Of a stretch of DNA of 64,000 nt, positions 2,329 to 15,387 are shown piece after piece (position 1 is the stretch's first letter; each line of letters begins with the position of its first letter). The DNA is from Gammaproteobacteria bacterium (lineage in GTDB: Bacteria; Pseudomonadota; Gammaproteobacteria; Eutrophobiales; Eutrophobiaceae), in assembly GCA_965116495.1 (NCBI GenBank), contig OZ220696.1, positions 4,256,001 through 4,320,000 on the forward strand, written 5' to 3'. Under the pieces are notes generated by a model. It searched no databases, was not told the DNA's origin, and saw only the letters and a list, made by a program, of their open reading frames with translations. The position numbers were made by a program, and so were the translations under genes.

Positions 2329-2531
2329 GGGTCGGACCAGTCCTATTCTTGATCCGGATAATCAACACGTTCGACTCGACTCTCTGGTCAAAGCCGCTCA
2401 TGCCGTGGGTAAAGAGCTTTCCGTAGCGCTGCATTAGACTTCTGCTGTCAGGCGGATTTTTTCCCTTGAGCAGTTTGGCCAGGTGAGGGTGTGCAATGTG
2501 CGACCTGACCCCGTTTGCATGCGTTTGCATA

Positions 2532-2560
2532 TTGACAGCAAAATCTGCTAGCAGTATAAT
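2532..2560 (+). promoter_or_regulatory. Consensus sigma70 promoter of the fitAB-like TA operon, with palindromic operator
   Basis: TTGACA (2532-2537), 17 bp spacer, TATAAT (2555-2560). Palindrome CTGCTAGCAG at 2545-2554. Confidence 0.8.
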
Positions 2561-2594
2561 ACAAGCCGATTTTAACACCAACGAGGATACGGCA

Positions 2595-2852
2595 ATGAGT
2601 TCTGTTATCACCGTCCGTGATGTCGACCCGGGCGACAAGTCCTGGCTCAAGCGCGAGGCGCGTCATCAAGGCGTGTCGATGGAAGAACTGGTGCGCCGTC
2701 TGATCCACGAGCGGCGCGAGAAATCCGAAAGTCATACAAAACCCTCTGAGGCTTTCAGGCGCTACTTCGGGCCGGATCACGGTGTTGAGCTACCGCTACA
2801 GGAGCGTCATGGTTACCGGCCCCTCGTATTTCCTGAAGATAACCAGCCATGA
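2595..2852 (+). CDS. FitA-like ribbon-helix-helix antitoxin
   Basis: MSSVITVRDVD...LKREARHQGVSMEELVRRLI pattern; GAGG RBS upstream; ATGA overlap with the PIN toxin. Confidence 0.8.
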   Translation: MSSVITVRDVDPGDKSWLKREARHQGVSMEELVRRLIHERREKSESHTKPSEAFRRYFGPDHGVELPLQERHGYRPLVFPEDNQP

Positions 2853-3298
2853 CCGCGCCTGTCGCCCGGCTCCTGGATACGAATGTTGTCTCGGAGATGA
2901 TGCGGCCCGAACCGGCGCCGCAAGTCGCGGAATTTCTCGACGCGGTCGCCGCAGACGGAATCGGTCTGTCCTGTGTGACTGTCTGGGAAATACTCAACGG
3001 CATCGGCAGGCTCGACCACGGGCAGCGCCGGTCGGATATTACGGAGCGATTCCAGGGTATGCTGGACGATGTCTTTGAAGATCGGGTTTTTGGCTGGACT
3101 GCTGCCGACGCACAAATTTGCGCTGAGATTATGGAAACAAAGCGCCGCAAAGGAGAGCCGCTCGATAGCCATTTGCCGGATGCGATGATTGCCGGTACTG
3201 CGGTACGCCACGGACTCACTATTGTCACACGCAACGAGCGAGAATTCCGTAATACAGGCGCCAACGCAGTCAACCCCTGGATAGAGTTACCGGACTGA
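2849..3298 (+). CDS. vapC: VapC/FitB PIN-domain toxin
   Basis: LLDTNVVSE, DAMIAGTA and TRNEREF PIN motifs. Confidence 0.92.
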   Translation: MTAPVARLLDTNVVSEMMRPEPAPQVAEFLDAVAADGIGLSCVTVWEILNGIGRLDHGQRRSDITERFQGMLDDVFEDRVFGWTAADAQICAEIMETKRRKGEPLDSHLPDAMIAGTAVRHGLTIVTRNEREFRNTGANAVNPWIELPD

Positions 3299-3348
3299 AG
3301 TAAAAACAGTGACCCTCTCCAGAATTCACAGACCGATTATTTCATTAT

Positions 3349-3594
3349 ATGCATATTTCATTGACACCTAAACTCGAGGCAATGGTCAAATCAAAGGTTG
3401 CATCGGGCATGTATAATAATGCCAGTGAAGTCATCAGGGAGGCACTCAGATTTATGGACCAGAATGAAAAACTTCTCTACCTGCTTAAATCAGAACGGTT
3501 ACGCTACGAGGTAGCGCAGGGAGCAATAGAGGCTGAGCAGGGTAATTTCAGCCCGCGCACCGTACAGGATATTCTTGATGATATGAATTCGTAG
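3349..3594 (+). CDS. parD: ParD-family antitoxin (CC2985-like)
   Basis: MHISLTP...VASGMYNNASEVIREALR signature. Confidence 0.88.
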   Translation: MHISLTPKLEAMVKSKVASGMYNNASEVIREALRFMDQNEKLLYLLKSERLRYEVAQGAIEAEQGNFSPRTVQDILDDMNS

Positions 3595-3609
3595 CCAGGG
3601 ATGGATATG

Positions 3610-3903
3610 ATGGCCAGGTACAGGCTCATACCGAAAGCCGACAGGGATTTGACGCAAATCTGGCGCTATACAAACGAGAACTGGGGTAAATCCCAGGCAA
3701 ATCAATACCTTCAACTTTTCGAGAGCCGCTTTCTGATGCTTTTACGCCACGCGAAGTCAGGTAGAGCGCGAGATGAAGTAAGGAGGGGATATCGTAGTCT
3801 GCCGGTTGAAAATCACGTCATATTTTATCGGGTTATAGATAATGACATCGAAATTGTAAGAGTTCTGCATCAACGAATGGAAGTCAATCAGCACGTATTT
3901 TAA
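3610..3903 (+). CDS. parE: ParE-family toxin
   Basis: ADRDLTQIWRYT..WG..QA..Y, GRARDEV..GYRS, HVIFYR, IVRVLHQRM. Start could be 3601, 3607 or 3610. Confidence 0.9.
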   Translation: MARYRLIPKADRDLTQIWRYTNENWGKSQANQYLQLFESRFLMLLRHAKSGRARDEVRRGYRSLPVENHVIFYRVIDNDIEIVRVLHQRMEVNQHVF

Positions 3904-3981
3904 TATAACGAGCATTCGGCTATACAACGGCTGAGAGAATGTCGATAGAATCCGACCCGGAACTGCTTCAGACCGGAAGTG

Positions 3982-4204
3982 TTGACGTTAGAGCAAAAGA
4001 AAACCCTGAAATTAATCGCAAAGATGTGGACTGATGAAAAATGAACTGTTCAATGAGCTGCTCAAAAGTATGCACGAGATGGACCGGATAGTTCAGGGCG
4101 AGTCAGCGCCCGGCAGAGTAACCCGGTTCACCGAACCGGAGGTCAGGCAGATTCGCGAAAATACCGGCCTCTTAAGGAGGCGCCATGACCGAACTCAACA
4201 TTGA
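3982..4204 (+). pseudogene. Remnant of a RelE/HigB toxin tail plus a truncated HigA/NadS-like antitoxin
   Basis: 3982-4044 reads LTLEQKKTLKLIAKMWTDEK*. 4034-4171 reads MKNELFNELLKSMHEMDRIVQGESAPGRVTRFTEPEVRQIRENTGL and then loses similarity where the Xre HTH should begin. Confidence 0.6.
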
Positions 4205-4379
4205 CGATTGCATCAACGAGACCTGTCCCTGGTCCGGCAAGCCGGTGCAGGCCGACTCGCTGGCCTTGTACGGCGATGATGTCGTCGGGTTTTGCAATCC
4301 TGGATGCCGTGACAAGTTTGAAAGCGCGGTCAGGCATTTTGAGGAAGCGAGGGTGTCGGTTGGAGAACGTATTGATTAA
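4185..4379 (+). CDS. Small YHS/TRASH-like Cys protein
   Basis: CPWSGKPV...VGFCNPGCRDKF; strong AAGGAGG RBS. Confidence 0.7.
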   Translation: MTELNIDDCINETCPWSGKPVQADSLALYGDDVVGFCNPGCRDKFESAVRHFEEARVSVGERID

Positions 4380-4449
4380 AACTCCGTTTCTCTAGAACCT
4401 GCCCGTGGGCAGCTTGTCACTCTCCCGAGCGAATCCCCACAGGCCAATT

Positions 4450-4487
4450 GCTTGGGCTCACTTACGGTAGGCGAAGTGAGCCCAAGC
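4450..4487. terminator. Perfect 14-bp stem hairpin (terminator or REP-like)
   Basis: GCTTGGGCTCACTT / AAGTGAGCCCAAGC, between convergent genes. Confidence 0.5.
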
Positions 4488-4695
4488 TAAAGAATCTCTA
4501 ACAAGGTGTCTTCGGGTTCCCAGGCCACCATGGTGTTTTTTATTTCAGGCCAAAATAAGTCGTCGAGCCTATTTGGATCAGGCAAATGCACCAAGTTTGC
4601 CTTGACTCTTCTTATTCGAGGTTCGCCCTTCTCATTTTTTGGTCGTCAGCAACACCGTGCGAGGCGGGTCAAAATATCCAGGGTCGAAGTATTAA

Positions 4696-5400
4696 TTAAA
4701 CAATGAATCGGACTAACCCATCCCAGGATGTTCTGTAAACAGGACGCTCGCGCGGATCAATCAAACCAACTTCTTCCAGCCGCCAATTCCCGCGTCCGTA
4801 GTTACAGGGGGCGCAAGTAATTACGATGTTATCCGGCACGGATTCTCCTCCCCAGCAATGCGGCAGGATGTGGTCAAACTGGAGCCACAGACATTGGAGT
4901 GCCGCATGTTGGTCGAGGTTCTTTTGGCTACGCCAATATGCAGAATCTGGATATGCTGTCGTTATTGCTTTACGGATTTCGAAAGGAATTACCGGGATTC
5001 CACAAAAGCGGCAGTTGTAACCATCACGAGCAATGATTTCAAGCCGTTGTTTTTTTGTTGGCATCCGGTCATAGACTTTTGGTTCAGGTTTACCTATGCC
5101 TTGAATTTCCCTCCAGCGGTGGTAACGCCATTGTTCCGGATTTTCCCGTTTACCACCCCAGAGTGATTCAGTCCAAGCCCGAATTTCAGGAATATCAGCC
5201 TCATGGAAAAGTTGTTCTGCAGTTTCCCGATCTTGACGAAGATGTGCGTCTACTGCCAGGTCCAGGAGTTCCGCTGCATGGAATATCTCATCTATAGGTT
5301 CTCGCATACAGCGACGAGGCGCCAGAAACTCTTCCAATAAAGCTTTTTCGCAAGAACCATCAGTGTAAGTCAAACTATGCAACATCGTCTTGTACCCCAA
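4696..5400 (-). CDS. HNH endonuclease
   Basis: RDGYNCRFCG, FDHILPHCWGG and NIVITCAPCNYGR (zinc-bound HNH). Start uncertain. Confidence 0.85.
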   Translation of the reverse strand: MGYKTMLHSLTYTDGSCEKALLEEFLAPRRCMREPIDEIFHAAELLDLAVDAHLRQDRETAEQLFHEADIPEIRAWTESLWGGKRENPEQWRYHRWREIQGIGKPEPKVYDRMPTKKQRLEIIARDGYNCRFCGIPVIPFEIRKAITTAYPDSAYWRSQKNLDQHAALQCLWLQFDHILPHCWGGESVPDNIVITCAPCNYGRGNWRLEEVGLIDPRERPVYRTSWDGLVRFIV

Positions 5401-5619
5401 TATTATTTGTCTTTCACCTCGGATAGTAACCTGTCAATAAGTCCGGATCTAATACCTGGCTTGCGACGTTCGGCAAGAGTCTTATCGAAAAAGTCAAAAG
5501 TGAATTTTGAAGCTATCCTGAACCTGCTTAGTCATACATTTCGGTTATACTAAACCATCAACCGATAACTTGGCTCTGCCCTTACAAAATGAAATTTCTT
5601 CTTTGCATGAGGTTTAGGC

Positions 5620-6546
5620 ATGAAATCTGACGTAGCCGACACCCTGATGCGCGTCGCAGCTTTTGGGCACGTGCTAAAGCTGAGCGAAACACAAAATAAT
5701 ATTTCAGCAGAGGAGTTGAGGAGCGGGTTTACTTTTGAAGGTGAGCGCATCCCATTGGTCAACCCGCAAAGAGGTATTTTCAAGCCAAAACAAATGCAAT
5801 ATTTGCTTTCGATCAGGACGGTGTTTCCTCGTCCTGGCAAGCGTGTCTGGTACGATGATCAACGACAGGTACATAGCCAGATATTCGAAAGCCGCGAAGC
5901 CGTCGATTATGCCTTCATGGGGAAAAATCCGGATGCCGCCGACAATCGTTGGCTCCGTGAAGCCTTCGAAAACCGGGTCCCGGTGATCTATTTCCTTGGC
6001 GTCGCACCAGGGCTTTATCAGGCGATAATACCCACATATATCTCTGGTTGGGATGCAAATGCGCTGAAAGCACGGATCGTTTTCGGAATTCCGCATCAAG
6101 CTGACTATGTTGCACCAGAAAGTGTCAGCGAACGCCGTTATGCGCTGCAGACAGTCAAACAACGCCTCCATCAAGCGTCTTTTCGTGAGGCTGTTATTAC
6201 AGCTTATAACGGACGTTGTGCCCTGTCTGGATTTCCGGAGCAGAGATTGCTTGATGCGGCGCACATTATTTCCGACAAAGATGAACAGTTAGGCCAGCCG
6301 GTTGTGCCAAACGGATTGCCGCTTTCAAAAATACATCATGCGGCGTTCGATGCTCACTTTATTGGTATTGATCCTGATTATCGACTGCATGTATCGGAAC
6401 GTCTTCTCCAATTACATGACGGTCCGATGCTTGATGCGTTAAAACAACTAGACGGTGGAATGCTCCACCTTCCGGCGCGGGCGAAGGACTATCCGGACCC
6501 GGACCGGCTATCGCTACGTTACGAGCAATTTAGGGTTGCTGCTTAG
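5620..6546 (+). CDS. Predicted restriction endonuclease: SRA-like N-terminus plus HNH_2
   Basis: C-terminal RLHQASFR...YNGRCALSG..LLDAAHI...NGLPLSKIHHAAFD; N-terminal GIFKP..LSIRT..YDD..DNRWLREA..VIYF. Confidence 0.8.
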   Translation: MKSDVADTLMRVAAFGHVLKLSETQNNISAEELRSGFTFEGERIPLVNPQRGIFKPKQMQYLLSIRTVFPRPGKRVWYDDQRQVHSQIFESREAVDYAFMGKNPDAADNRWLREAFENRVPVIYFLGVAPGLYQAIIPTYISGWDANALKARIVFGIPHQADYVAPESVSERRYALQTVKQRLHQASFREAVITAYNGRCALSGFPEQRLLDAAHIISDKDEQLGQPVVPNGLPLSKIHHAAFDAHFIGIDPDYRLHVSERLLQLHDGPMLDALKQLDGGMLHLPARAKDYPDPDRLSLRYEQFRVAA

Positions 6547-6584
6547 ATTAGTTACATTTCAAAAAGATCACGAAAGTTGTTTCC

Positions 6585-7427
6585 ATGAAAGAACTAAGAA
6601 AATTGAACTTTAATAAACTGATTTCTGTCGGCGTGCCTGATGTTGCGACCTATTCCTACGATGAATATAAAACTAATGGGTATAAGCACAAACCTATAAA
6701 CGGGTATTGTGTTTCGTGCGAAGAAAAAGGATGCAGCAGTTCAACGGACGATGATTCATATAAGCTTACCAACATATCTCACGGCGCACATTCCAGTGAT
6801 TTCTTCCGAGCATATAAGATAAAACAGGATGCCTCAGATTGGCATCATGAACCGATCATGTTTGTGTATGAATCACCGAGCCGGAATTACGATATTTACA
6901 AAGAAGAACGTTATAACGGATATGACAAGCAACCTTCAAAAACTTGGTATTGGATCCATAGCGATTGGGATAGTCCTATTGCGTATCCTAAAGGATTTAA
7001 GGGTGGCGTATATGACGAATTTGTTTGGTGTGCTACATTGACCTTTAAACTTGCAAATGTTTACGTGACAAACTTGGTTAAATGCGGATTAAATAACGTA
7101 GAAGGAAATTTTAAAGGTCTAGCATCATTTAAGAATGAAACCGTTGAAAACTGCTATACGAATTTCTTGAGTGAGGAGATCTCTATCATCAAGCCAACAA
7201 TTATTTTTGCTGTAGGATCCAACATCGAGCGGTGGGTTAATCATTTCGTCAAAGATAAATATTTTGTGCAGCAACTACCGCATCCTGCTGGGAGGCGAAG
7301 AGGCTTCAGGGATGATCATTACAGAGCTATCTACTTCTGGGGTGTGGTAAGGGCACTTCACAAAGCTGAGATCATCAACACCGATGAAGGTTGTGAATTG
7401 GCAAGGCTATATTTGGATAAATATTAA
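6585..7427 (+). CDS. Divergent uracil-DNA-glycosylase superfamily protein
   Basis: MFVYESPS, YVTNLVKC, NC..FLSEEISIIKPTIIFAVG and LPHPA; N-terminal CxxC. Confidence 0.7.
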   Translation: MKELRKLNFNKLISVGVPDVATYSYDEYKTNGYKHKPINGYCVSCEEKGCSSSTDDDSYKLTNISHGAHSSDFFRAYKIKQDASDWHHEPIMFVYESPSRNYDIYKEERYNGYDKQPSKTWYWIHSDWDSPIAYPKGFKGGVYDEFVWCATLTFKLANVYVTNLVKCGLNNVEGNFKGLASFKNETVENCYTNFLSEEISIIKPTIIFAVGSNIERWVNHFVKDKYFVQQLPHPAGRRRGFRDDHYRAIYFWGVVRALHKAEIINTDEGCELARLYLDKY

Positions 7428-7753: not shown

Positions 7754-8746
7754 ATGGATGCAATAAAAGCACTAGGATTAAGCCAGCCGGATGATTGGAT
7801 TCTAAAACCCGATCAACATGCAGACTTCCTCCCTGATGAAGCGGCACAACTTGTAGCCATTCTACGTAGTAGCAAAATAAATACTATCATCACAAAATAT
7901 AAAGATGCTGATGAAAAAGCTATACACGCACAAAAAAAATATAAGTTATTTAGCAAATTTGGAATTTCATCCGCTTCCGCCGCTGCATTACTTGGAGCAG
8001 TCCTGTTATTTTTAAAATCCTCTTCGGACCCAGGAACTTTTCTTTACAATGTTGGTGAAAATTATGAAAGGCTCATTCTGAGTGCTGAAGCCATAGCTAT
8101 TGCATTGACGGCTTCATTTAGCTACTTACTCAAGCATGATAAATATTTTATCAAATGGATGAATCAACGTGCGAAAGCGGAGACTGAACGGATACGACTC
8201 TTTGAAACTGTATGCTTTCATAAATGTCCGGATCTCAATAAGAATAATTGTATTGAACTTTACCAATTACAACTTGAATACTTTCGAAGATATCAACTTG
8301 AAGTGCAACTGAGTTATTATAAGGGAAGAAGTGAACAGCATGAGAAAGCTGCGAGTAAATTGATTTCTGTTGGTGGAGGTATTACTTTTTTTATTGTATT
8401 AGCAACTGCAATGACCGGCGTATTTGATAATGGTGAAATTATCGCAGCATTAGCTCTTATGGGGATTGCTGCACCGGTAATTTTATCAGCACACGGTAAT
8501 TTGAAACTCATCAGTCAGGATGAACGTAATTCAATAAGATATACGAATACATATGATCGCTTGTTAGAGTTGGAAGGAAATCTTTCTGATGTCAGGAATA
8601 AAATTTCTAACGGCGACCAAGATGAATTAATAAACTTTGTTAACCTGGTTAACAATGAAATTTCTGTTGAACATCGAGAATGGATTAGAATTCAAGACTC
8701 CGCTGAAAGACCAAACTACAAGCACTCGGATTACATGGAAGAATGA
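7754..8746 (+). CDS. SLATT/DUF4231-like membrane protein with two 2TM modules
   Basis: Two hydrophobic hairpins followed by KWMNQRAKAE, QLSYY and V..EISVEHREW, which resemble SLATT motifs. Confidence 0.65.
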   Translation: MDAIKALGLSQPDDWILKPDQHADFLPDEAAQLVAILRSSKINTIITKYKDADEKAIHAQKKYKLFSKFGISSASAAALLGAVLLFLKSSSDPGTFLYNVGENYERLILSAEAIAIALTASFSYLLKHDKYFIKWMNQRAKAETERIRLFETVCFHKCPDLNKNNCIELYQLQLEYFRRYQLEVQLSYYKGRSEQHEKAASKLISVGGGITFFIVLATAMTGVFDNGEIIAALALMGIAAPVILSAHGNLKLISQDERNSIRYTNTYDRLLELEGNLSDVRNKISNGDQDELINFVNLVNNEISVEHREWIRIQDSAERPNYKHSDYMEE

Positions 8747-8802: not shown

Positions 8803-9270
8803 CTAAGTAATTTCACGTGCAAGATTTGACCACGTTACGACTTTTATATTATTAGCCCTTATCCAACGTGGCATTTTATTTGGCTTTCCATCCTTCGTAT
8901 GCGTAGCAATTACAGTTTTTCCCAGTGAGAGACTCTTCTCTACTTCCCATTTCACCCATTCACTGTTATCAGTATATTTTGAAATATGGACGACACAGTA
9001 TGAACTACGTTCTATGCGTTCAGTAATCTTCTGCTTAATATAATCAGCCCGTACGCTATTAAACGGGGCACGTACAGAGTGATCATTAAATTCGATATCA
9101 CTATTATCGTTTTTGGCATTGGCACGCAATAAGTTGACTTCATCCATGTCTTCGGCCGCGAAACTTATGAATACATTACGTTTCCCCCCCTTTAGCGCTT
9201 CCTTTGCCTTTTCTTCAAGGCCGCGAATGTTTCCCAAGGTATTCCACCCTCCGCCGCTACCGCCGCCCAC
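8803..9270 (-). CDS. ThsB-like TIR domain protein (DUF1863/MTH538) with Gly-rich N-terminus
   Basis: RNVFISF..ED and SEWVKWEVEKS (catalytic Glu position). GTG start with GAGGAG RBS at 9278-9283; overlaps the queC stop. Confidence 0.85.
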   Translation of the reverse strand: MGGGSGGGWNTLGNIRGLEEKAKEALKGGKRNVFISFAAEDMDEVNLLRANAKNDNSDIEFNDHSVRAPFNSVRADYIKQKITERIERSSYCVVHISKYTDNSEWVKWEVEKSLSLGKTVIATHTKDGKPNKMPRWIRANNIKVVTWSNLAREIT

Positions 9271-9862
9271 TTACCGTCTCCTCAAACTTGAACTCGTTGC
9301 ACGCTATGCATGCTCCACAAGGTTCTTCCCCACCAGCATGGCATGAGTAAGTGTCTCGAATTCCTTTTTTTTTCGCCATTTCAACAATCTCCACCTTGTG
9401 AAATTTTGAGAGTGGTGCCAAGACTAGTATTTGGCGGCCCATACATGTTGCAATCATTTGCTCCGCATTATGTAAAAAGGTGGTTGTTTGGTCAGGAAAG
9501 AGACTGGTATCTTCATGCAAAAGTCCGATTGAGACAGCATCAGCTTTTACTTGATATGCGTACGCTGAGGCTATAAGCAAAAATAACATGTTGCGACCTG
9601 GGGTGAATGCATCCTCAAGCACATGCATGTTTCGATCCGTCAACCCTGAACGAATGAGAGTTCCGTATCCTTCAAGATTAGCGACTTCAGGTTGTGGTAG
9701 ATTCAGATGTGACATGGCTCTTTTGCAAGCCGCCAATTCAAAGTCGCGTGAGCGCTGACCATAGTCAATAAATAGAGGGAACTGTTGTACGCCTTCTTCA
9801 TGCGCCAATTGTGCTAGCAACGTAGAGTCCAGACCGCCTGATACGAGTGTTACCATGCTCAT
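9257..9862 (-). CDS. queC: QueC-family (7-cyano-7-deazaguanine synthase-like; Cap9-like)
   Basis: SGGLDS PP-loop, DYGQR, PGRNMLFL, and Zn motif YSCH..CGACIAC. Confidence 0.9.
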   Translation of the reverse strand: MSMVTLVSGGLDSTLLAQLAHEEGVQQFPLFIDYGQRSRDFELAACKRAMSHLNLPQPEVANLEGYGTLIRSGLTDRNMHVLEDAFTPGRNMLFLLIASAYAYQVKADAVSIGLLHEDTSLFPDQTTTFLHNAEQMIATCMGRQILVLAPLSKFHKVEIVEMAKKKGIRDTYSCHAGGEEPCGACIACNEFKFEETVSGRR

Positions 9863-9864
9863 AC

Positions 9865-10569
9865 TTACACCATTGCATATCCAGAACTTCGTGCAACGCG
9901 CATTACTATCCAGATTGCCCAGTCTAGGAGGCCAACTTTGACATCCATTTCTAGAGCATGCCTCACTAAGTTTTTTTCCTGCCTCTGATAGTTCGCGAGA
10001 TGAGAGATTGAACCTACTTTTTTAGAATAATAGCCTAAAGCGGTCATATAGTCGATCACATGTCGGTCGATGATTGCAAGATCATAGCTAAGGCAAATAT
10101 TTCTTAAGAACATGCTCGCCTGTTTGGGCCCTATCCCAGGCGTATTTCGGACAAGCCAAGAACGGGTATCGGAGGGTGTTTGAAAGGATGCAAGAAGGCA
10201 TTCAAGACTATCTGACGCTTGTGTAATTACCTGCCTAGTTGCGGCAAGTTGGTTTGCCCGGATTCTCGGGTAACGGTAAGCTCGTTGCCGGTTTTCGACA
10301 TTAAGCCGTTGAATAAGTAGATTATTAAGTTCCATAGCCAGAACACTTTCTGATATGTGCTCATCCAACAAAAGGCTACTCGTGTCGATCGCATCTGCTG
10401 CAGCGACTGCCAGTGGGTAAGGAACTTGGCTGCTAAGCAAACAACAAGAAAGCTCATACCAAAGGCAACGTTCGTCAAGTGTTGGTTTTCGAGAGGCGAC
10501 ACGATTTTCAATATCAGGATAGATGGTTGAAACTGCTTCCGAAAGCCTGTATGGCTCAATGCGAATCAT
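9865..10569 (-). CDS. 8-oxoguanine DNA glycosylase/AP-lyase-like HhH protein (Cap11-like)
   Basis: ELSCCLLSSQ, YRYP..RA, PGIGPKQASMFLRN, LAIIDRHV and LDWAIW. Confidence 0.8.
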   Translation of the reverse strand: MIRIEPYRLSEAVSTIYPDIENRVASRKPTLDERCLWYELSCCLLSSQVPYPLAVAAADAIDTSSLLLDEHISESVLAMELNNLLIQRLNVENRQRAYRYPRIRANQLAATRQVITQASDSLECLLASFQTPSDTRSWLVRNTPGIGPKQASMFLRNICLSYDLAIIDRHVIDYMTALGYYSKKVGSISHLANYQRQEKNLVRHALEMDVKVGLLDWAIWIVMRVARSSGYAMV

Positions 10570-12047
10570 TTGAAGATTCCCGGTATCTTTTTTTCTAACA
10601 ACTCTACGTTTATTTTGCCTAGCAATTTCGTAACAAATCCCTCTAACCGTTCCTCGACTGTAGCCAACTGTAGTTTTGCAGAAAAATTAGCATAATAATC
10701 AAGATTGTGAAGAGAAACTTTTCCAGAAATTCCAATTTCAGCGTCATCTATTGCTGCCTGTGTTACCGAAGAGTCAGCTAATCGGGCTTGGAATTCGAAG
10801 AAATCGAAATGTTGAGTGTGATGAAGTGTTCCCCTCTCTGTGTCAACGGCGTATCGGCACCATTCGAGACCATCAAAGCTATCCGCACCAGCTGCAGTGT
10901 ATACTACAATACTCCAAGGATTTCCCGTACCTAGAAGATGTATCGGTTGATAGAATGGCAACTTGGCCAATTCCTCCCGAATTTTCCTTACTGTACGTGC
11001 ACCTTCGATAAGTCCAGGTCCAAGTTCACGCTCAGGGACAGCAATTAGAGGTGGGTGTAGGTTCTCGGAAATTTCACGAATAATTGTTGGTAAATGTTCA
11101 AGGTCGTGCCCACCCGGTTGAAGTTGTGGTGCATGCACGATAGGGATAATAGGCGCATCGGTTAGTTTCTGATCCTGTCTGATCCCGCCAAGTATTGCTG
11201 AGACTGAAGTTTTAGGTTTCCGTTGTCGAGAGGAAGGATTTATGGGTGGGGCTGGATAGTCAAATGAAAGAACCCAATCGTGCGGCGTTTGACTGAGCGC
11301 TTGCTTTAGATCATCTCGGCTCCAAGTTTTGTTTTCCAGTCTTGTAGCCTCATAGTTGCCAGAGTCGACCATCACAAAACCACCATTTTTACGAAAACGT
11401 GCGAGTGCATTTCTCAGTTGAGTTAACTCCTTCAGTTTTTTTGCACTGGGATAATGTTGCTCAACTAGGTCATAAGCTGAGACTAGAATGGTTGGACCTC
11501 CGCGTAAATTTGTTGAATCGAACGCACCAATTCCGAATACCGAAAGGACTTTTACCGCCTCGAGTGGTTCAAGTCGTGTTTCATATGAAGATGCCGAGTG
11601 GAATAGAGAGGGGAGTTTTATTTGCAGATTTGCAATTTCCTCGGGGCGTTTGGGGGGAAATCTGGGCGAAACAATGGTGGCCAATTTTCTTTGTAATTGT
11701 TTCAAGCCTTCATGATCGCGTTCACCTTTCCAGCATTGCATATCGACTGTGCTCCAAACGGTGTACCCGTAAGGTGCTTTACAGTCCTCAATTGTTGCTG
11801 GAACCAAAGTGATGTTGTTATCTTTAGAGATTTCAAGCTCATTTATCACATTGTCGCTACAGCGTGCCGCCGAAGACCAAATAGGAACCACACATTTCGC
11901 TTTCTGCAATTCTTTCTCGATTTCTATATTGAATTTTCCCGTGACGGTATCGTCCCACCAGACATCCCAGCTTTCTGACAAGATTTCAAAAAGTTGCTTC
12001 GCTTTATCACGGTCGGTGCTTGAATAAATTATGCAAATATCGGCCAA
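10566..12047 (-). CDS. Fusion of N-terminal TIR domain and C-terminal tRNA-guanine-transglycosylase-like barrel (Cap10-like)
   Basis: aa 1-130 TIR: IIYSSTD, VWWD, VVPIWS, SDNVINEL. C-terminal part: MVDSGNYE, IHLLGTG, AGADSFDG, LHNL. TTG start; ATGA overlap with the next gene. Confidence 0.8.
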   Translation of the reverse strand: MADICIIYSSTDRDKAKQLFEILSESWDVWWDDTVTGKFNIEIEKELQKAKCVVPIWSSAARCSDNVINELEISKDNNITLVPATIEDCKAPYGYTVWSTVDMQCWKGERDHEGLKQLQRKLATIVSPRFPPKRPEEIANLQIKLPSLFHSASSYETRLEPLEAVKVLSVFGIGAFDSTNLRGGPTILVSAYDLVEQHYPSAKKLKELTQLRNALARFRKNGGFVMVDSGNYEATRLENKTWSRDDLKQALSQTPHDWVLSFDYPAPPINPSSRQRKPKTSVSAILGGIRQDQKLTDAPIIPIVHAPQLQPGGHDLEHLPTIIREISENLHPPLIAVPERELGPGLIEGARTVRKIREELAKLPFYQPIHLLGTGNPWSIVVYTAAGADSFDGLEWCRYAVDTERGTLHHTQHFDFFEFQARLADSSVTQAAIDDAEIGISGKVSLHNLDYYANFSAKLQLATVEERLEGFVTKLLGKINVELLEKKIPGIFK

Positions 12048-12122
12048 AATATCTTAATCCCAAAGCAGGCGGCTAACGCTCGGAGCAGTATTTGATATAG
12101 CTATTGTAAATTGCATCTTATG

Positions 12123-13205
12123 CTAGTGTGCTGTCCCAGAAATAACTGTGCATAGTCTTTCAACCTTGTTCAAGATAGACTCAGCCGTCGCCGTCCAAAC
12201 GAATGGGCGAGTATTCGCATTATAGTTGTCCACAAACTGCTTGATCTTGTTGACGAGTTGTTTTACTGAGGTAAAGGAGCCCCGCCGGATGGCCGTTTGG
12301 GTGATGAGACCAAACCAGCGTTCCACCTGATTGAGCCATGAGGCATAGGTGGGGGTGTAGTGCACATGGTAACGGGGTCGTTTTGCCAGCCAGGCCTTCA
12401 CCTTGGCATGTTTGTGGGTGACGTAATTATCGACGATCAGATGCACGTCCAGGTCGGCGGGCACGTTCCGGTCGATGTGTCGCAGGAAGGCCAGGAATTC
12501 CTGATGCCGGTGGCGGCGTGTACAGCGGCTGAGCACGGTGCCGGTGGCCACGTCCAGGGCGGCAAACAAGGTGGTGGTGCCGTGCCGGATATAGTCATGC
12601 GTCACCCCCTCGACATAGCCCAGTCCCAGGGGCAACAGCGGCTGTGTGCGTTCCAGGGCCTGGATTTGGGTCTTCTCATCGACACACAGGACCACGGCAT
12701 GGTCGGGCGGGTTCAGGTATAAACCGACGATATCGCGCACCTTCTCGATGAAGAACGGGTCGGTGGATAGTTTGAAGGTGCGTTGTCGTTGGGGCTGTAT
12801 TCCGAACAGGGTGAACCAGCGCTGTACGGTGCTTTTTGAGACGCCGGTGTGCTCGGCCAGGGTGCGTAGCGTCCAGTGGGTCCCGTCGGACGGGGTGGAT
12901 TGCAAGGCGGTATTGATGACCTCGGCCACCCGTTCGTCGTCGTGGCTGCGCGGGCGCCCGGCACGCAGTTCGTCGTGCAAGCCTTCAAGGCCGTGCTCGA
13001 CGTAGCGTTTGCGCCATTTGGCCACGGTATTCTTATTCAAACGCAGCCGTGCGGCGATGGCGCTGCCGGGCTCACCCTCGGCACAGGCGAGGACAATCTG
13101 GGCGCGTTGGACCAGGCCATGTGGCAAGGAACGTGACTGTGCGAGGCTGAGTAACTGACTTTTTTCATCCTGGTTGAGTACAATGGGGGTAGCACGACGA
13201 GGCAT
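12123..13205 (-). CDS. IS630 transposase
   Basis: HTH region, VDEKTQIQAL, HDYIRHGTTTLFAAL, DNYVTHK, HYTPTYASWLNQVERWF. ORF appears intact; start between 13205 and 13232. Confidence 0.95.
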   Translation of the reverse strand: MPRRATPIVLNQDEKSQLLSLAQSRSLPHGLVQRAQIVLACAEGEPGSAIAARLRLNKNTVAKWRKRYVEHGLEGLHDELRAGRPRSHDDERVAEVINTALQSTPSDGTHWTLRTLAEHTGVSKSTVQRWFTLFGIQPQRQRTFKLSTDPFFIEKVRDIVGLYLNPPDHAVVLCVDEKTQIQALERTQPLLPLGLGYVEGVTHDYIRHGTTTLFAALDVATGTVLSRCTRRHRHQEFLAFLRHIDRNVPADLDVHLIVDNYVTHKHAKVKAWLAKRPRYHVHYTPTYASWLNQVERWFGLITQTAIRRGSFTSVKQLVNKIKQFVDNYNANTRPFVWTATAESILNKVERLCTVISGTAH

Positions 13206-13269
13206 GAGCATTTCTCCGGGTAATGGGTTCATGCCTATTATACCTCTTATTTATGGGACAGTACACTAG
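12123..13269 (-). mobile_element. IS630-family insertion sequence
   Basis: Ends CTAGTGTGCTGTCCCAGAAATAA (12123-12145) and TTATTTATGGGACAGTACACTAG (13247-13269) match as inverted repeats at 21/23 positions. TA duplication at a CTAG site; more GC-rich than its flanks. Confidence 0.93.
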
Positions 13270-14444
13270 GTGGATTCAGGGGAATCCTTCGGTATCGCCG
13301 CCCAAAAAGCGAAGTACAGAGCAGAAACAAAGTCATCAGTGATTGTGAAGTTTGGTCCAGCCAAGGCCGTGAACACAGGGTCAACCTTTTCCTCAGCCAG
13401 AACAACAACAGATAATCCCTCGTTATGCGCACGTTGGCCTTTGGCCAAGAGATTTGGTGTCAATACGGTGGCAATAATCAGGACTGTGGTCGGTTCTTGA
13501 AGAATGGCATCTCGATCTATACCATTGAGTTCATAACAGATAACCGTTGCTCCAAGTTCGCATAAACGAAACCGGGCTTCTTCCAAAACATACCGACCAC
13601 CGATTGTGTTAACCTCACCCTCAAGTGAAATTGGGCCAGGTTGAGAGGTGCCGATTGCTACAAGGTCAGACATTGATCCTGAAGGTACGGGGAGTTGGCG
13701 AGTGCTGCAGTACCTTGCAACCGAACGAGACGCAAGATCAGCCGCATAGTATGCAGACATTTTTGCTTCTGCCCAATAAAAGGTGAATATAGCGCTAAAG
13801 ACGTCTCCACTCCCTATTTTAAAGACACTGCTCGAACGATACGCTGGAATGTGGCTCTCCTCTACACCGGGCTCAAATACTATAGCGCCTTGGGCACCTG
13901 CCTTAACAATGATTACCGAAACATTTTGTTCCTGCATAATGCGTTTGGCAGCCAATTTAAGATCATCCTCCCCCGTAATTAATCTAAGCTCAAGCACATT
14001 GAGAACAATAGCAAGCTCTTCGGCGTAAGAACCATTTTCACCGAATGTCTTAGGGGATAAAGCTGTCTGGGGGTCATAGACAGCCCGTTTTGCTTTGACA
14101 ATTGCATCACCTTCCAAAAAACCAAAGCATAACACTGTATCTCCAGAGACTTGGAGTGGCGGCTGCCGCTCGATTTGGTCATAAGAGGGTTCGATGTGGG
14201 GTTGCGATAGAGGATGAAAGTAGGAGAATGCGATTCGGACATTCGAGGGTTGTCCCCGCAATGTTATACCAAGACTTTCAAGGAGTCCGATTCCAGGACT
14301 ATTTCTATCACTTACATATGTGTGAAGCACACTTCCGGGGGATAAATTGCTAACAGCTGCTGCTGCCCGACCGCCAGACCCAAATTCTGCATCCCATTCT
14401 GGAATCATACAAATTTCGTGATATAAACCACCTACAATCTGCAT
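13266..14444 (-). CDS. PfkB/ribokinase-family kinase with C-terminal nucleoside-deoxyribosyltransferase-like domain
   Basis: FGSGGRAAAA, VYDPQ, IVKAGAQGA and KIGSGDVFSA (PfkB anion-hole motif). The C-terminal ~125 aa alpha/beta extension is tentatively NDT-like and degenerate. Confidence 0.75.
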   Translation of the reverse strand: MQIVGGLYHEICMIPEWDAEFGSGGRAAAAVSNLSPGSVLHTYVSDRNSPGIGLLESLGITLRGQPSNVRIAFSYFHPLSQPHIEPSYDQIERQPPLQVSGDTVLCFGFLEGDAIVKAKRAVYDPQTALSPKTFGENGSYAEELAIVLNVLELRLITGEDDLKLAAKRIMQEQNVSVIIVKAGAQGAIVFEPGVEESHIPAYRSSSVFKIGSGDVFSAIFTFYWAEAKMSAYYAADLASRSVARYCSTRQLPVPSGSMSDLVAIGTSQPGPISLEGEVNTIGGRYVLEEARFRLCELGATVICYELNGIDRDAILQEPTTVLIIATVLTPNLLAKGQRAHNEGLSVVVLAEEKVDPVFTALAGPNFTITDDFVSALYFAFWAAIPKDSPEST

Positions 14445-14607: not shown

Positions 14608-15387
14608 TCATAGATCATGCCAACTGGCGTCCATTATATCCCCGTTATCATCAAAACTAATGATCACCCTCTTTACAATATTGAGTTCATGATTAAGTTG
14701 ATTGGGGCGGCCGTATTTTAAGTGTGACTTGAGGCTACCCTCGACCTTCTCGTTAATTAGGGTATCAGTGACTTTGATGTCATAATCATCGAACCATCCA
14801 TAACAGTTTGTAGAAACAGATATCATTTTGTTGGTATATTCCTTCTTAGGCGGGAATAAGTTCATGAGGCTCGTATTTAGCTCGACAACTTCGAATTGGA
14901 TTGGAAACGTAGCTTTGTTGTGAAGTAGGAACCCTAAACTTATGGTGTTCACAGCACCATCTTCTGTTAATGTCCTGTTTATTCTCATGTTATTAAACAC
15001 TAGCTTGCCTTCCACACTGTTTCGATAGCGCCATTCATCGAACCGCAACAGGCCGGTGGGAATGGCTACAAACAACACCCCTACGCCCACGATTAAATGG
15101 AACCAAGGAGTGCCTTGAAGCCAGCCTAGTACGCCAATCACGATGATGATTGCAATAGGTAATATTTTGTATCGCCATTCGTCAATTCGTGATAGACCAG
15201 TGGAAACGGCTACAAACAACAGCACTACACCGACGCCCAGATAGAACAAGGGAATGTCTTCAAGCCAACCCATTACACTAGCCCCGATGGAGAGCGCTAA
15301 GGGTATTACATGTTTTGTCACGGCTTCCTCAGCGAATAGGTTAGCTATCCACTTACTGAATTCTGATGACTTGTGCCTAAAATTCAT
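14608..15387 (-). CDS. Hypothetical membrane protein with internal 48-aa repeat
   Basis: N-terminal hydrophobic segments GWL...DEWRY occur twice, followed by a soluble beta-rich C-terminus. Confidence 0.65.
   Translation of the reverse strand: MNFRHKSSEFSKWIANLFAEEAVTKHVIPLALSIGASVMGWLEDIPLFYLGVGVVLLFVAVSTGLSRIDEWRYKILPIAIIIVIGVLGWLQGTPWFHLIVGVGVLFVAIPTGLLRFDEWRYRNSVEGKLVFNNMRINRTLTEDGAVNTISLGFLLHNKATFPIQFEVVELNTSLMNLFPPKKEYTNKMISVSTNCYGWFDDYDIKVTDTLINEKVEGSLKSHLKYGRPNQLNHELNIVKRVIISFDDNGDIMDASWHDL

Follow-up and report, generated by a model that had tools for sequence, protein, structure and literature searches.

What is a TIR domain doing on the same chain as a barrel related to the tRNA-guanine transglycosylases (TGTs)? 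The question is raised by a gene at 10566..12047 on the minus strand of a 64,000-nucleotide stretch of DNA from a Gammaproteobacteria bacterium of the family Eutrophobiaceae (assembly GCA_965116495.1, contig OZ220696.1, positions 4,256,001 to 4,320,000); this whole stretch is called the window below, and coordinates refer to it. The product of 493 amino acids (aa), read from a TTG start, carries a TIR_2 domain at residues 1-125 (11673..12047, minus strand) and, at residues 143-493 (10566..11621, minus strand), a barrel without zinc cysteines that resembles Cap10 of type IV CBASS (anti-phage signalling systems based on cyclic oligonucleotides). We call it the TIR::Cap10 fusion. It lies in an operon with relatives of Cap9 and Cap11 and with a second, small TIR of the ThsB type, and the system fits the class of Thoeris operons with Cap9, Cap10 and Cap11, as a variant in which Cap10 carries a remodelled TIR and a PfkB gene is usually present. 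We regard the identity of the parts of this system as very likely correct.

The TIR::Cap10 fusion gene

Pfam recognises TIR_2 at residues 4-118 (E 9e-12), with the codon of Glu70 at 11838-11840, and TGT at residues 354-476 (E 6e-6, slightly below the family cut-off); the PADLOC TGT model matches with E 1e-20. The top PDB sequence match of the fusion is Cap10 (9NTN; E 7e-8), and a Foldseek search with the AlphaFold2 model (pLDDT 92.5, pTM 0.91, from an alignment of 63 sequences) also places Cap10 at the head of its matches, with E 3e-13 and a TM of 0.72 on the target, and bacterial and mammalian TGTs behind it; the structural alignment with Cap10 has about 20% identity. The high pTM suggests that the TIR is held in a fixed pose against the barrel. 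An original prediction, made from the sequence alone, had described an N-terminal TIR that keeps its catalytic-position Glu and is followed by a TGT-like barrel lacking the CxCxxC zinc motif. Each of these points holds, and the motifs that it quoted (SDNVINEL, DSGNYE, HLLG and DSFDG) are all found in the sequence.

The fusion is real. A homologue search returned 1278 matches among 8000 candidates, and TIR_2 is on the same chain in 118 of the 120 homologues listed; the existence of these full-length homologues supports the TTG start. Chance read-through or a gene-calling artefact was rejected on the same count, with which the GTDB and metagenome sets described below concur. A 391-aa protein (P0004) is identical to residues 103-493 of the fusion and lacks the TIR, so the TIR is overlooked by some gene calls; TTG or GTG starts, found at 19 of 51 loci, may conceal the fusion in annotations. 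Searches for other architectures gave weak evidence: a search for a stand-alone short form found none, as none of its 18 candidates scored, and a search for longer fusions likewise found nothing.

The barrel as a probable Cap10-type enzyme

Cap10 residues were transferred to the fusion through sequence alignment with 9NTN. By this alignment, D228, S229 and D263 of the barrel correspond to the nucleobase pocket D73/S74/D122 of Cap10 (kept in 120, 120 and 121 of 121 aligned sequences, respectively), and H370 and D392 to its catalytic pair H226/D248, both of which are kept in all 121. Wassarman et al. (10.1101/2025.04.06.647259) report that the pocket residues read the deazaguanine on Gly2 of the partner, that D248 and D73 are needed for CBASS defence, that the partner bound by Cap10 is inactive, that in CBASS two copies of Cap10 pair on the former tRNA-binding face as a homodimer, and that no acceptor for Cap10 had been found. 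His305 of the barrel (120 of 121 sequences) sits near Cap10 K154 in the profile alignment and is a probable stand-in for that Lys. Because the catalytic Asp/His pair of Cap10 is kept as D392/H370, the barrel is probably a Cap10-type enzyme, more than the mere reader that the original prediction had seen in it.

Like the bacterial Tgt and the archaeosine TgtA (1IQ8), the barrel has the TGT fold, the DSG motif and the catalytic Asp. Unlike them, it has no CxCxxC...H zinc site (the CxCxxC motif is present in none of 83 barrel open reading frames (ORFs) from 81 loci), it scores far under the NCBIfam cut-offs, and the host encodes a separate tgt elsewhere in the genome. A housekeeping tRNA TGT was rejected on these grounds.

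Two TIRs with different active sites

The small ThsB-type TIR (155 aa, GTG start; 8803..9270, minus strand) begins with MGGGSGGG and is predicted from its sequence to be both the acceptor of deazaguanylation and the cyclase of the system. In a profile alignment, Ile7, Asn66 and Glu70 of the fused TIR stand opposite Ser36, Trp105 and Glu109 of ThsB; the fused TIR hardly aligns to the ThsB profile (probability 1.5%). In ThsB the three residues are nearly invariant (S36 in 77, W105 in 79 and E109 in 78 of 79 sequences). In the fused TIR, Glu70 is kept in 117 of 121 sequences and Gly37 of the BB-loop in 114. The Trp four residues before the Glu (position E-4 of WxxxE) is found in 0 of 117 homologues, 0 of 61 GTDB sequences and 2 of 71 metagenome sequences, three sets that partly overlap and have a common ancestry; the window protein has Asn66 here, and Tyr occurs in 3 of the 117 homologues. 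The Ser ahead of the Tyr of strand beta-A, a general TIR motif, is lost to a similar extent (4/121, 0/64 and 7/72 in the same sets), with Ile7 in its place in the window. A control set of 18 TIRs from this subfamily, none of them joined to Cap10, came from 300 genomes of the phylum; 14 of them have the Trp and 15 have the Ser.

Manik et al. describe an aromatic residue at E-4 in every cyclase TIR surveyed, and its mutation shifts the product toward linear ADP-ribose (ADPR), although activity is not always lost; they also report that AbTir W204A has reduced activity and that TIR NADases require self-association. Because ThsB retains the Trp and the Ser that the fused TIR has lost, it is ThsB that is likely the source of the cyclic signal; the fused TIR likely is not. 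The suggestion that two NADase TIRs are brought together as a switch is weakened by the same losses, since most of the unfused relatives have kept the residues in question.

As for its origin, the fused TIR groups with a widespread TIR_2 subfamily that occurs at the N-terminus of unrelated proteins, and taken alone it has no significant sequence match in the PDB. We also considered that the fusion derived from a ThsB gene lying immediately upstream of an unfused Cap10, as seen in L074, L075, L077, L079 and L080 (L numbers denote loci of the comparison set), and rejected this because those TIRs belong to the ThsB family, to whose profile the fused TIR hardly aligns.

Predicted binding of ThsB to the barrel

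A complex prediction for the full fusion with residues 2-155 of ThsB scored 0.53, against 0.00 for the best control, with at least 83% contact agreement between runs and a partner pLDDT of at least 75. The mark set for this score was passed by 116 of 157 solved pairs and 2 of 215 mismatched pairs, but among the pairs that passed, only 18 solved ones had scores of 0.60 or less, as had both mismatches; moreover, the value of 0.53 may owe something to likeness with the solved Cap10-CdnD complex. The model is thus a weak indication that the barrel binds ThsB. The original prediction held that the barrel binds the deazaguanine-tagged small TIR; the intact pocket, the MGGGSGGG tail, the adjacent QueC and this weak model agree with binding, and what falls away is the reader role as the whole of its function. 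Taken jointly, that Cap9 tags ThsB and that the barrel binds the tagged ThsB seems to us likely.

The operon and its conservation

Downstream of the fusion, on the same strand, lie a Cap11-like OGG/HhH glycosylase (234 aa; 9865..10569; Pfam Ogg-HhH E 2e-23), whose start overlaps the stop of the fusion, and a Cap9-like QueC (201 aa; 9257..9862) with the SGGLDS loop and zinc cysteines, in which FPD occupies the aromatic-x-Asp base-reading site at Y115/D117 of Cap9. The ThsB gene follows. On the plus strand, converging on the operon, a SLATT membrane protein (7754..8746) is, by its sequence, a candidate ThsH-like effector. The SLATT subfamily of the window is found directly upstream of TIR::Cap10 in L058 and L061, which ties this divergent SLATT to the system. 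Upstream of the fusion, a PfkB/ribokinase-family kinase with a GSGD motif (13266..14444, minus strand) is the first operon gene in relatives, where the gap between pfkB and the fusion has a median of 65 bp (51 relatives).

Conservation was surveyed in the best 80 of 180 GTDB loci, with fused status assigned by hidden Markov model and neighbours counted within the available DNA. The fused TIR is present at 61 of the 80 loci; these 61 have QueC in 60, OGG in 59 and PfkB in 54 cases, and 58 of them have SLATT or TPR-S no more than 8 kb away. The other 19 loci, two of which are L049 (at a contig end) and L067 (with another TIR, see below), have QueC in 18, SLATT in 16 and PfkB in none. ThsB follows QueC at 79 of 81 loci, the window counted, and its Gly-rich tail is present in 78 of these 79. 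Among 80 metagenome loci, the TIR model finds a match in 72 of 81 barrel ORFs, and most of the others end at a contig edge; OGG, QueC and Gly-tailed ThsB recur in all 49 loci with sufficient downstream DNA, and PfkB in 32 of the 51 with upstream DNA. The PfkB association is mostly confined to one clade of the barrel tree, and the deeper fused members L051, L058, L060, L061, L064 and L073 have no PfkB in the available DNA.

The module is patchy in distribution: besides this genome, one of 22 genomes of the genus (G053) has a copy, and a distant one (L086:7600-13916), with TIR::Cap10 split by an insertion sequence (IS), a ThsB-SLATT pair directly downstream and many transposases around it. In L002, L003, L006 and L016, an alpha/beta-hydrolase together with a TPR-S-trypsin-like protease pair flanks the operon, replacing SLATT or standing alongside it. 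Unfused SLATT-Cap10-Cap9-ThsB sets in L062, L065, L068, L070-L072, L078 and L079 lie in or beside clusters that we take to be type I restriction-modification-like.

It should be mentioned that a different TIR has also been attached to Cap10. In L067 (650-2098), a metagenome-assembled genome of the Pirellulales, the TIR belongs to the AbTir family, an assignment made from its PDB match (E 3e-35 to the solved AbTir), and the barrel falls with the unfused clade (support 99, on a long branch of a quick tree). A TIR tree, in which the L067 branch is very long, neither shows nor rejects a single origin of the two fused TIRs. A second origin of the fusion is likely on these data, from one locus only, and suggests that attaching a TIR to Cap10 has been selected more than once.

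A proposed mechanism and its alternatives

Starting from the observed domains, residues, operon and conservation, we propose for the fused TIR the role of a non-cyclising partner in assembly, and for the barrel that it binds tagged ThsB and gates its signalling. For the full mechanism, our confidence falls somewhat short of even. By analogy with type IV CBASS, Cap9 would couple 7-carboxy-7-deazaguanine (CDG) to Gly2 of ThsB. The tagged tail would then be held in the guanine pocket of the barrel, a step to which the complex model lends weak support, and ThsB would be kept parked; as the Cap10-bound partner in CBASS is inactive, binding alone may keep ThsB off. Upon infection, the barrel may pass tagged ThsB to some acceptor or let it go, as the kept D392 and H370 would allow, and Cap11 may undo this transfer or release. 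ThsB would now assemble; its tethered partner TIR would nucleate or cap this assembly, and the assembled ThsB would produce a cyclic ADP-ribose signal, most likely cADPR.

Several observations weigh against this proposal. The same Cap10-Cap9-ThsB module is present without a fused TIR at 17 of the 80 GTDB loci (the 19 mentioned above less L049 and L067), and the TIR is therefore dispensable for the core. Median pairwise identity drops from 65% in ThsB and 45% in the barrel to 36% in the fused TIR; the least conserved part of the system is a poor fit for a tight interface with conserved ThsB. The retention of Glu70 (about 97% of sequences) exceeds what a pure scaffold might require, and the TIR of L067 retains Ser, Trp and Glu alike. 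No contact between the two TIRs was obtained; the complex prediction returned no contacts at all. Finally, to judge from its gene content, this host has no de novo substrate for the tagging step (see the next section).

Of the other explanations, that of a plain NAD+ hydrolase is unlikely, yet deserves a hearing: the fused TIR would serve as an additional effector arm that depletes NAD, and clustering of Cap10 dimers by tagged ThsB would turn it on. This is the original prediction at its strongest. The retained Glu70 and Gly37 speak for it, as do the homodimeric state of CBASS Cap10, the self-association required by TIR NADases, and the finding of Manik et al. that without the Trp the product shifts toward linear in place of cyclic ADPR, while activity is not always abolished. 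The beta-A Ser has also been lost, however, AbTir W204A is less active, most fused loci already have a separate SLATT or TPR-S effector nearby, and a dimer would be small for a TIR filament. The distribution of PfkB invites a further reading, which we rate as quite unlikely, in which the fused TIR is a brake or recycler that hydrolyses leaked cyclic signal or NAD+ to ADP-ribose, PfkB processes the product, and the autoimmunity threshold is set in this way. Some TIRs hydrolyse cADPR. Here the Glu is retained though the Trp is lost, and PfkB accompanies most fused loci but none of the other GTDB loci. In CBASS, moreover, loss of Cap9 or Cap11 increases toxicity (Wassarman et al., 10.1101/2025.04.06.647259). 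On the contrary, since the PfkB link is mostly that of one barrel-tree clade, it is not independent evidence, and the deeper fused members listed above do without PfkB as far as their DNA extends.

It is also rather improbable that the fused TIR never meets ThsB and serves for phage sensing or localisation, setting off or placing the reaction of Cap10, its Glu being structural. No candidate ligand was identified for such a sensor, and the joining of a second TIR family to Cap10 in L067 points to a TIR-specific role, even though the fused TIR diverges fastest of the parts, packs on the barrel in a confident predicted pose and comes from a subfamily that is widespread at the N-terminus of unrelated proteins. 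We give very little credence to a non-catalytic barrel that reads the tag, with ThsB activated by binding alone. The absence of the zinc site and of tRNA-binding features would agree with it, as would the lack, so far, of an acceptor for Cap10 in CBASS; the invariance of D392 and H370 does not, nor do the need for D248 in CBASS defence and the inactivity of the Cap10-bound partner there. A similarly slight chance is left to a relay in which the tethered, non-cyclising TIR would split NAD+ and provide ADP-ribose or ribose as an acceptor, which the co-inherited PfkB kinase may help to shape; to this acceptor the barrel would attach deazaguanine-tagged ThsB. The protein-base-ribose link built by this TIR-transglycosylase would then be the activation step, and the fusion would point to the acceptor of Cap10; in hosts that, like this one, are without CDG synthesis, arming of the circuit might depend on CDG from the infecting phage alone.

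Supply of deazaguanine in the host

The host genome (one contig, 99.5% complete) has tgt and queF. It has no queD, no housekeeping queC, no YhhQ transporter and no match to two queE models, and none of six QueD-like and three QueE-like proteins taken from elsewhere in other genomes had a tblastn match in it. With queD, queE and housekeeping queC absent, the host would have no de novo CDG for Cap9; by its gene content it is a salvager of queuosine precursors that carries a CDG-requiring Cap9. Among relatives, 50 of the 80 were searched and 44 of these have a PTPS/QueD match, some of them weak. Four of five checked among the six relatives without a match also have no housekeeping queC, the completeness of these genomes not being given. 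G053, whose copy of the operon is broken by an IS, is also without queD. The operon may be idle in hosts without CDG genes, in keeping with the insertions found here and in G053, or it may use salvaged or phage-made CDG instead.

Near the housekeeping tgt of the host (3110810), at a distance of 4-9 kb, we noted two further ThsB-type TIR genes (G000:C1:3102299-3106521), which suggests a second Thoeris-like locus there.

Relation to known defence systems

The closest known counterpart of the barrel is Cap10 of type IV CBASS (Rhizobiales, 9NTN), which shares the zinc-less TGT barrel, the D73/S74/D122 pocket and the D248/H226 pair, is likewise encoded with Cap9 and Cap11, and has as its partner a protein whose tail is M(G/S)G(G/S)GG-like. 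Unlike CBASS Cap10, the fusion has an N-terminal TIR, and its partner is a ThsB TIR instead of a CD-NTase. Although Cap9, Cap10 and the optional Cap11 are all represented, membership of type IV CBASS was rejected, since no CD-NTase was found among the window neighbours scanned or recognised in the recurrent neighbour families of the 80 loci. By analogy, the system would work as type IV CBASS does, except that a TIR cyclase stands where the CD-NTase would be. According to Yirmiya et al. (10.64898/2025.12.03.692087, Fig. 6G, S10B), some Thoeris operons encode Cap9, Cap10 and Cap11, and ThsB was modelled to bind Cap10 (ipTM 0.79) and Cap9 (0.62), as predictions only. The window operon has the same combination of TIR, effector and Cap9/10/11, to judge by sequence features alone: a ThsB-type TIR with catalytic Glu and Gly tail and an adjacent SLATT. 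The text of that paper, whose figures and tables may show such operons, mentions neither a TIR-Cap10 fusion nor PfkB, and our literature search found no paper on the TIR::Cap10 fusion, although papers of the Aravind group may mention it.

The effectors of type VII (ThsH, SLATT) and type VIII (ThsI, CMP hydrolase-TPR) Thoeris respond to cADPR (10.64898/2025.12.03.692087). Most loci here resemble these types in having a ThsB-type TIR beside SLATT and TPR-S effectors; types VII and VIII, however, are two-gene systems without deazaguanylation genes, and the SLATT of the window is of a divergent subfamily and on the opposite strand. For the TPR-S neighbours, Pfam gives TPR-S and MAP3K_TRAF_bd, and we infer the CMP-hydrolase label. 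QatABCD is a further anti-phage defence system that pairs a QueC-family enzyme with a Gly-tailed partner, QatC acting on QatB's N-terminal glycine. It differs in having neither Cap10 nor TIR, and QatC is larger, with a substrate that is apparently not CDG.

Two questions stated as open for type IV CBASS are by what means Cap10 activates its deazaguanylated immune enzyme and where the tag goes. Genomes and metagenomes with TIR and Cap10 on one chain number in the hundreds, cultured strains of Pseudomonas, Rhizobium and Ruegeria among them, and the fusion offers single-residue tests (E70, D392, and G2 and E109 of ThsB) as well as a small molecule as an output that can be measured. Should the fused TIR co-assemble with ThsB, this would be a bacterial heteromeric TIR enzyme gated by protein modification, and the presence of the operon in hosts without queD and queE raises the testable question of where the base comes from.

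Other features of the window

Between pfkB and TIR::Cap10, an IS630-family element (12123..13265, minus strand) sits where pfkB ends, at the stop-codon CTAG. It has one copy in the assembly, and its insertion is recent, because a near-identical allele without it (run X6) joins 12122 to 13266; the element is outside the system. The C-terminal domain of PfkB (13266-13680), of about 130 residues, has conserved E289, G298, D371, F372, Y377 and W381. It has no family match, and may resemble nucleoside deoxyribosyltransferase-like domains. Upstream of pfkB and on the same strand, 14608-15387 encodes a 259-aa membrane protein with a weak SLATT_1 match (E 0.005) and no homologue among the 80 GTDB loci; it is possibly a further effector. 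The region at 2496-7427 is island-like, with two HNH proteins, a uracil-DNA-glycosylase-family gene adjoining the SLATT gene, and apparent toxin-antitoxin pairs, which we take to be PIN-like and ParDE-like.

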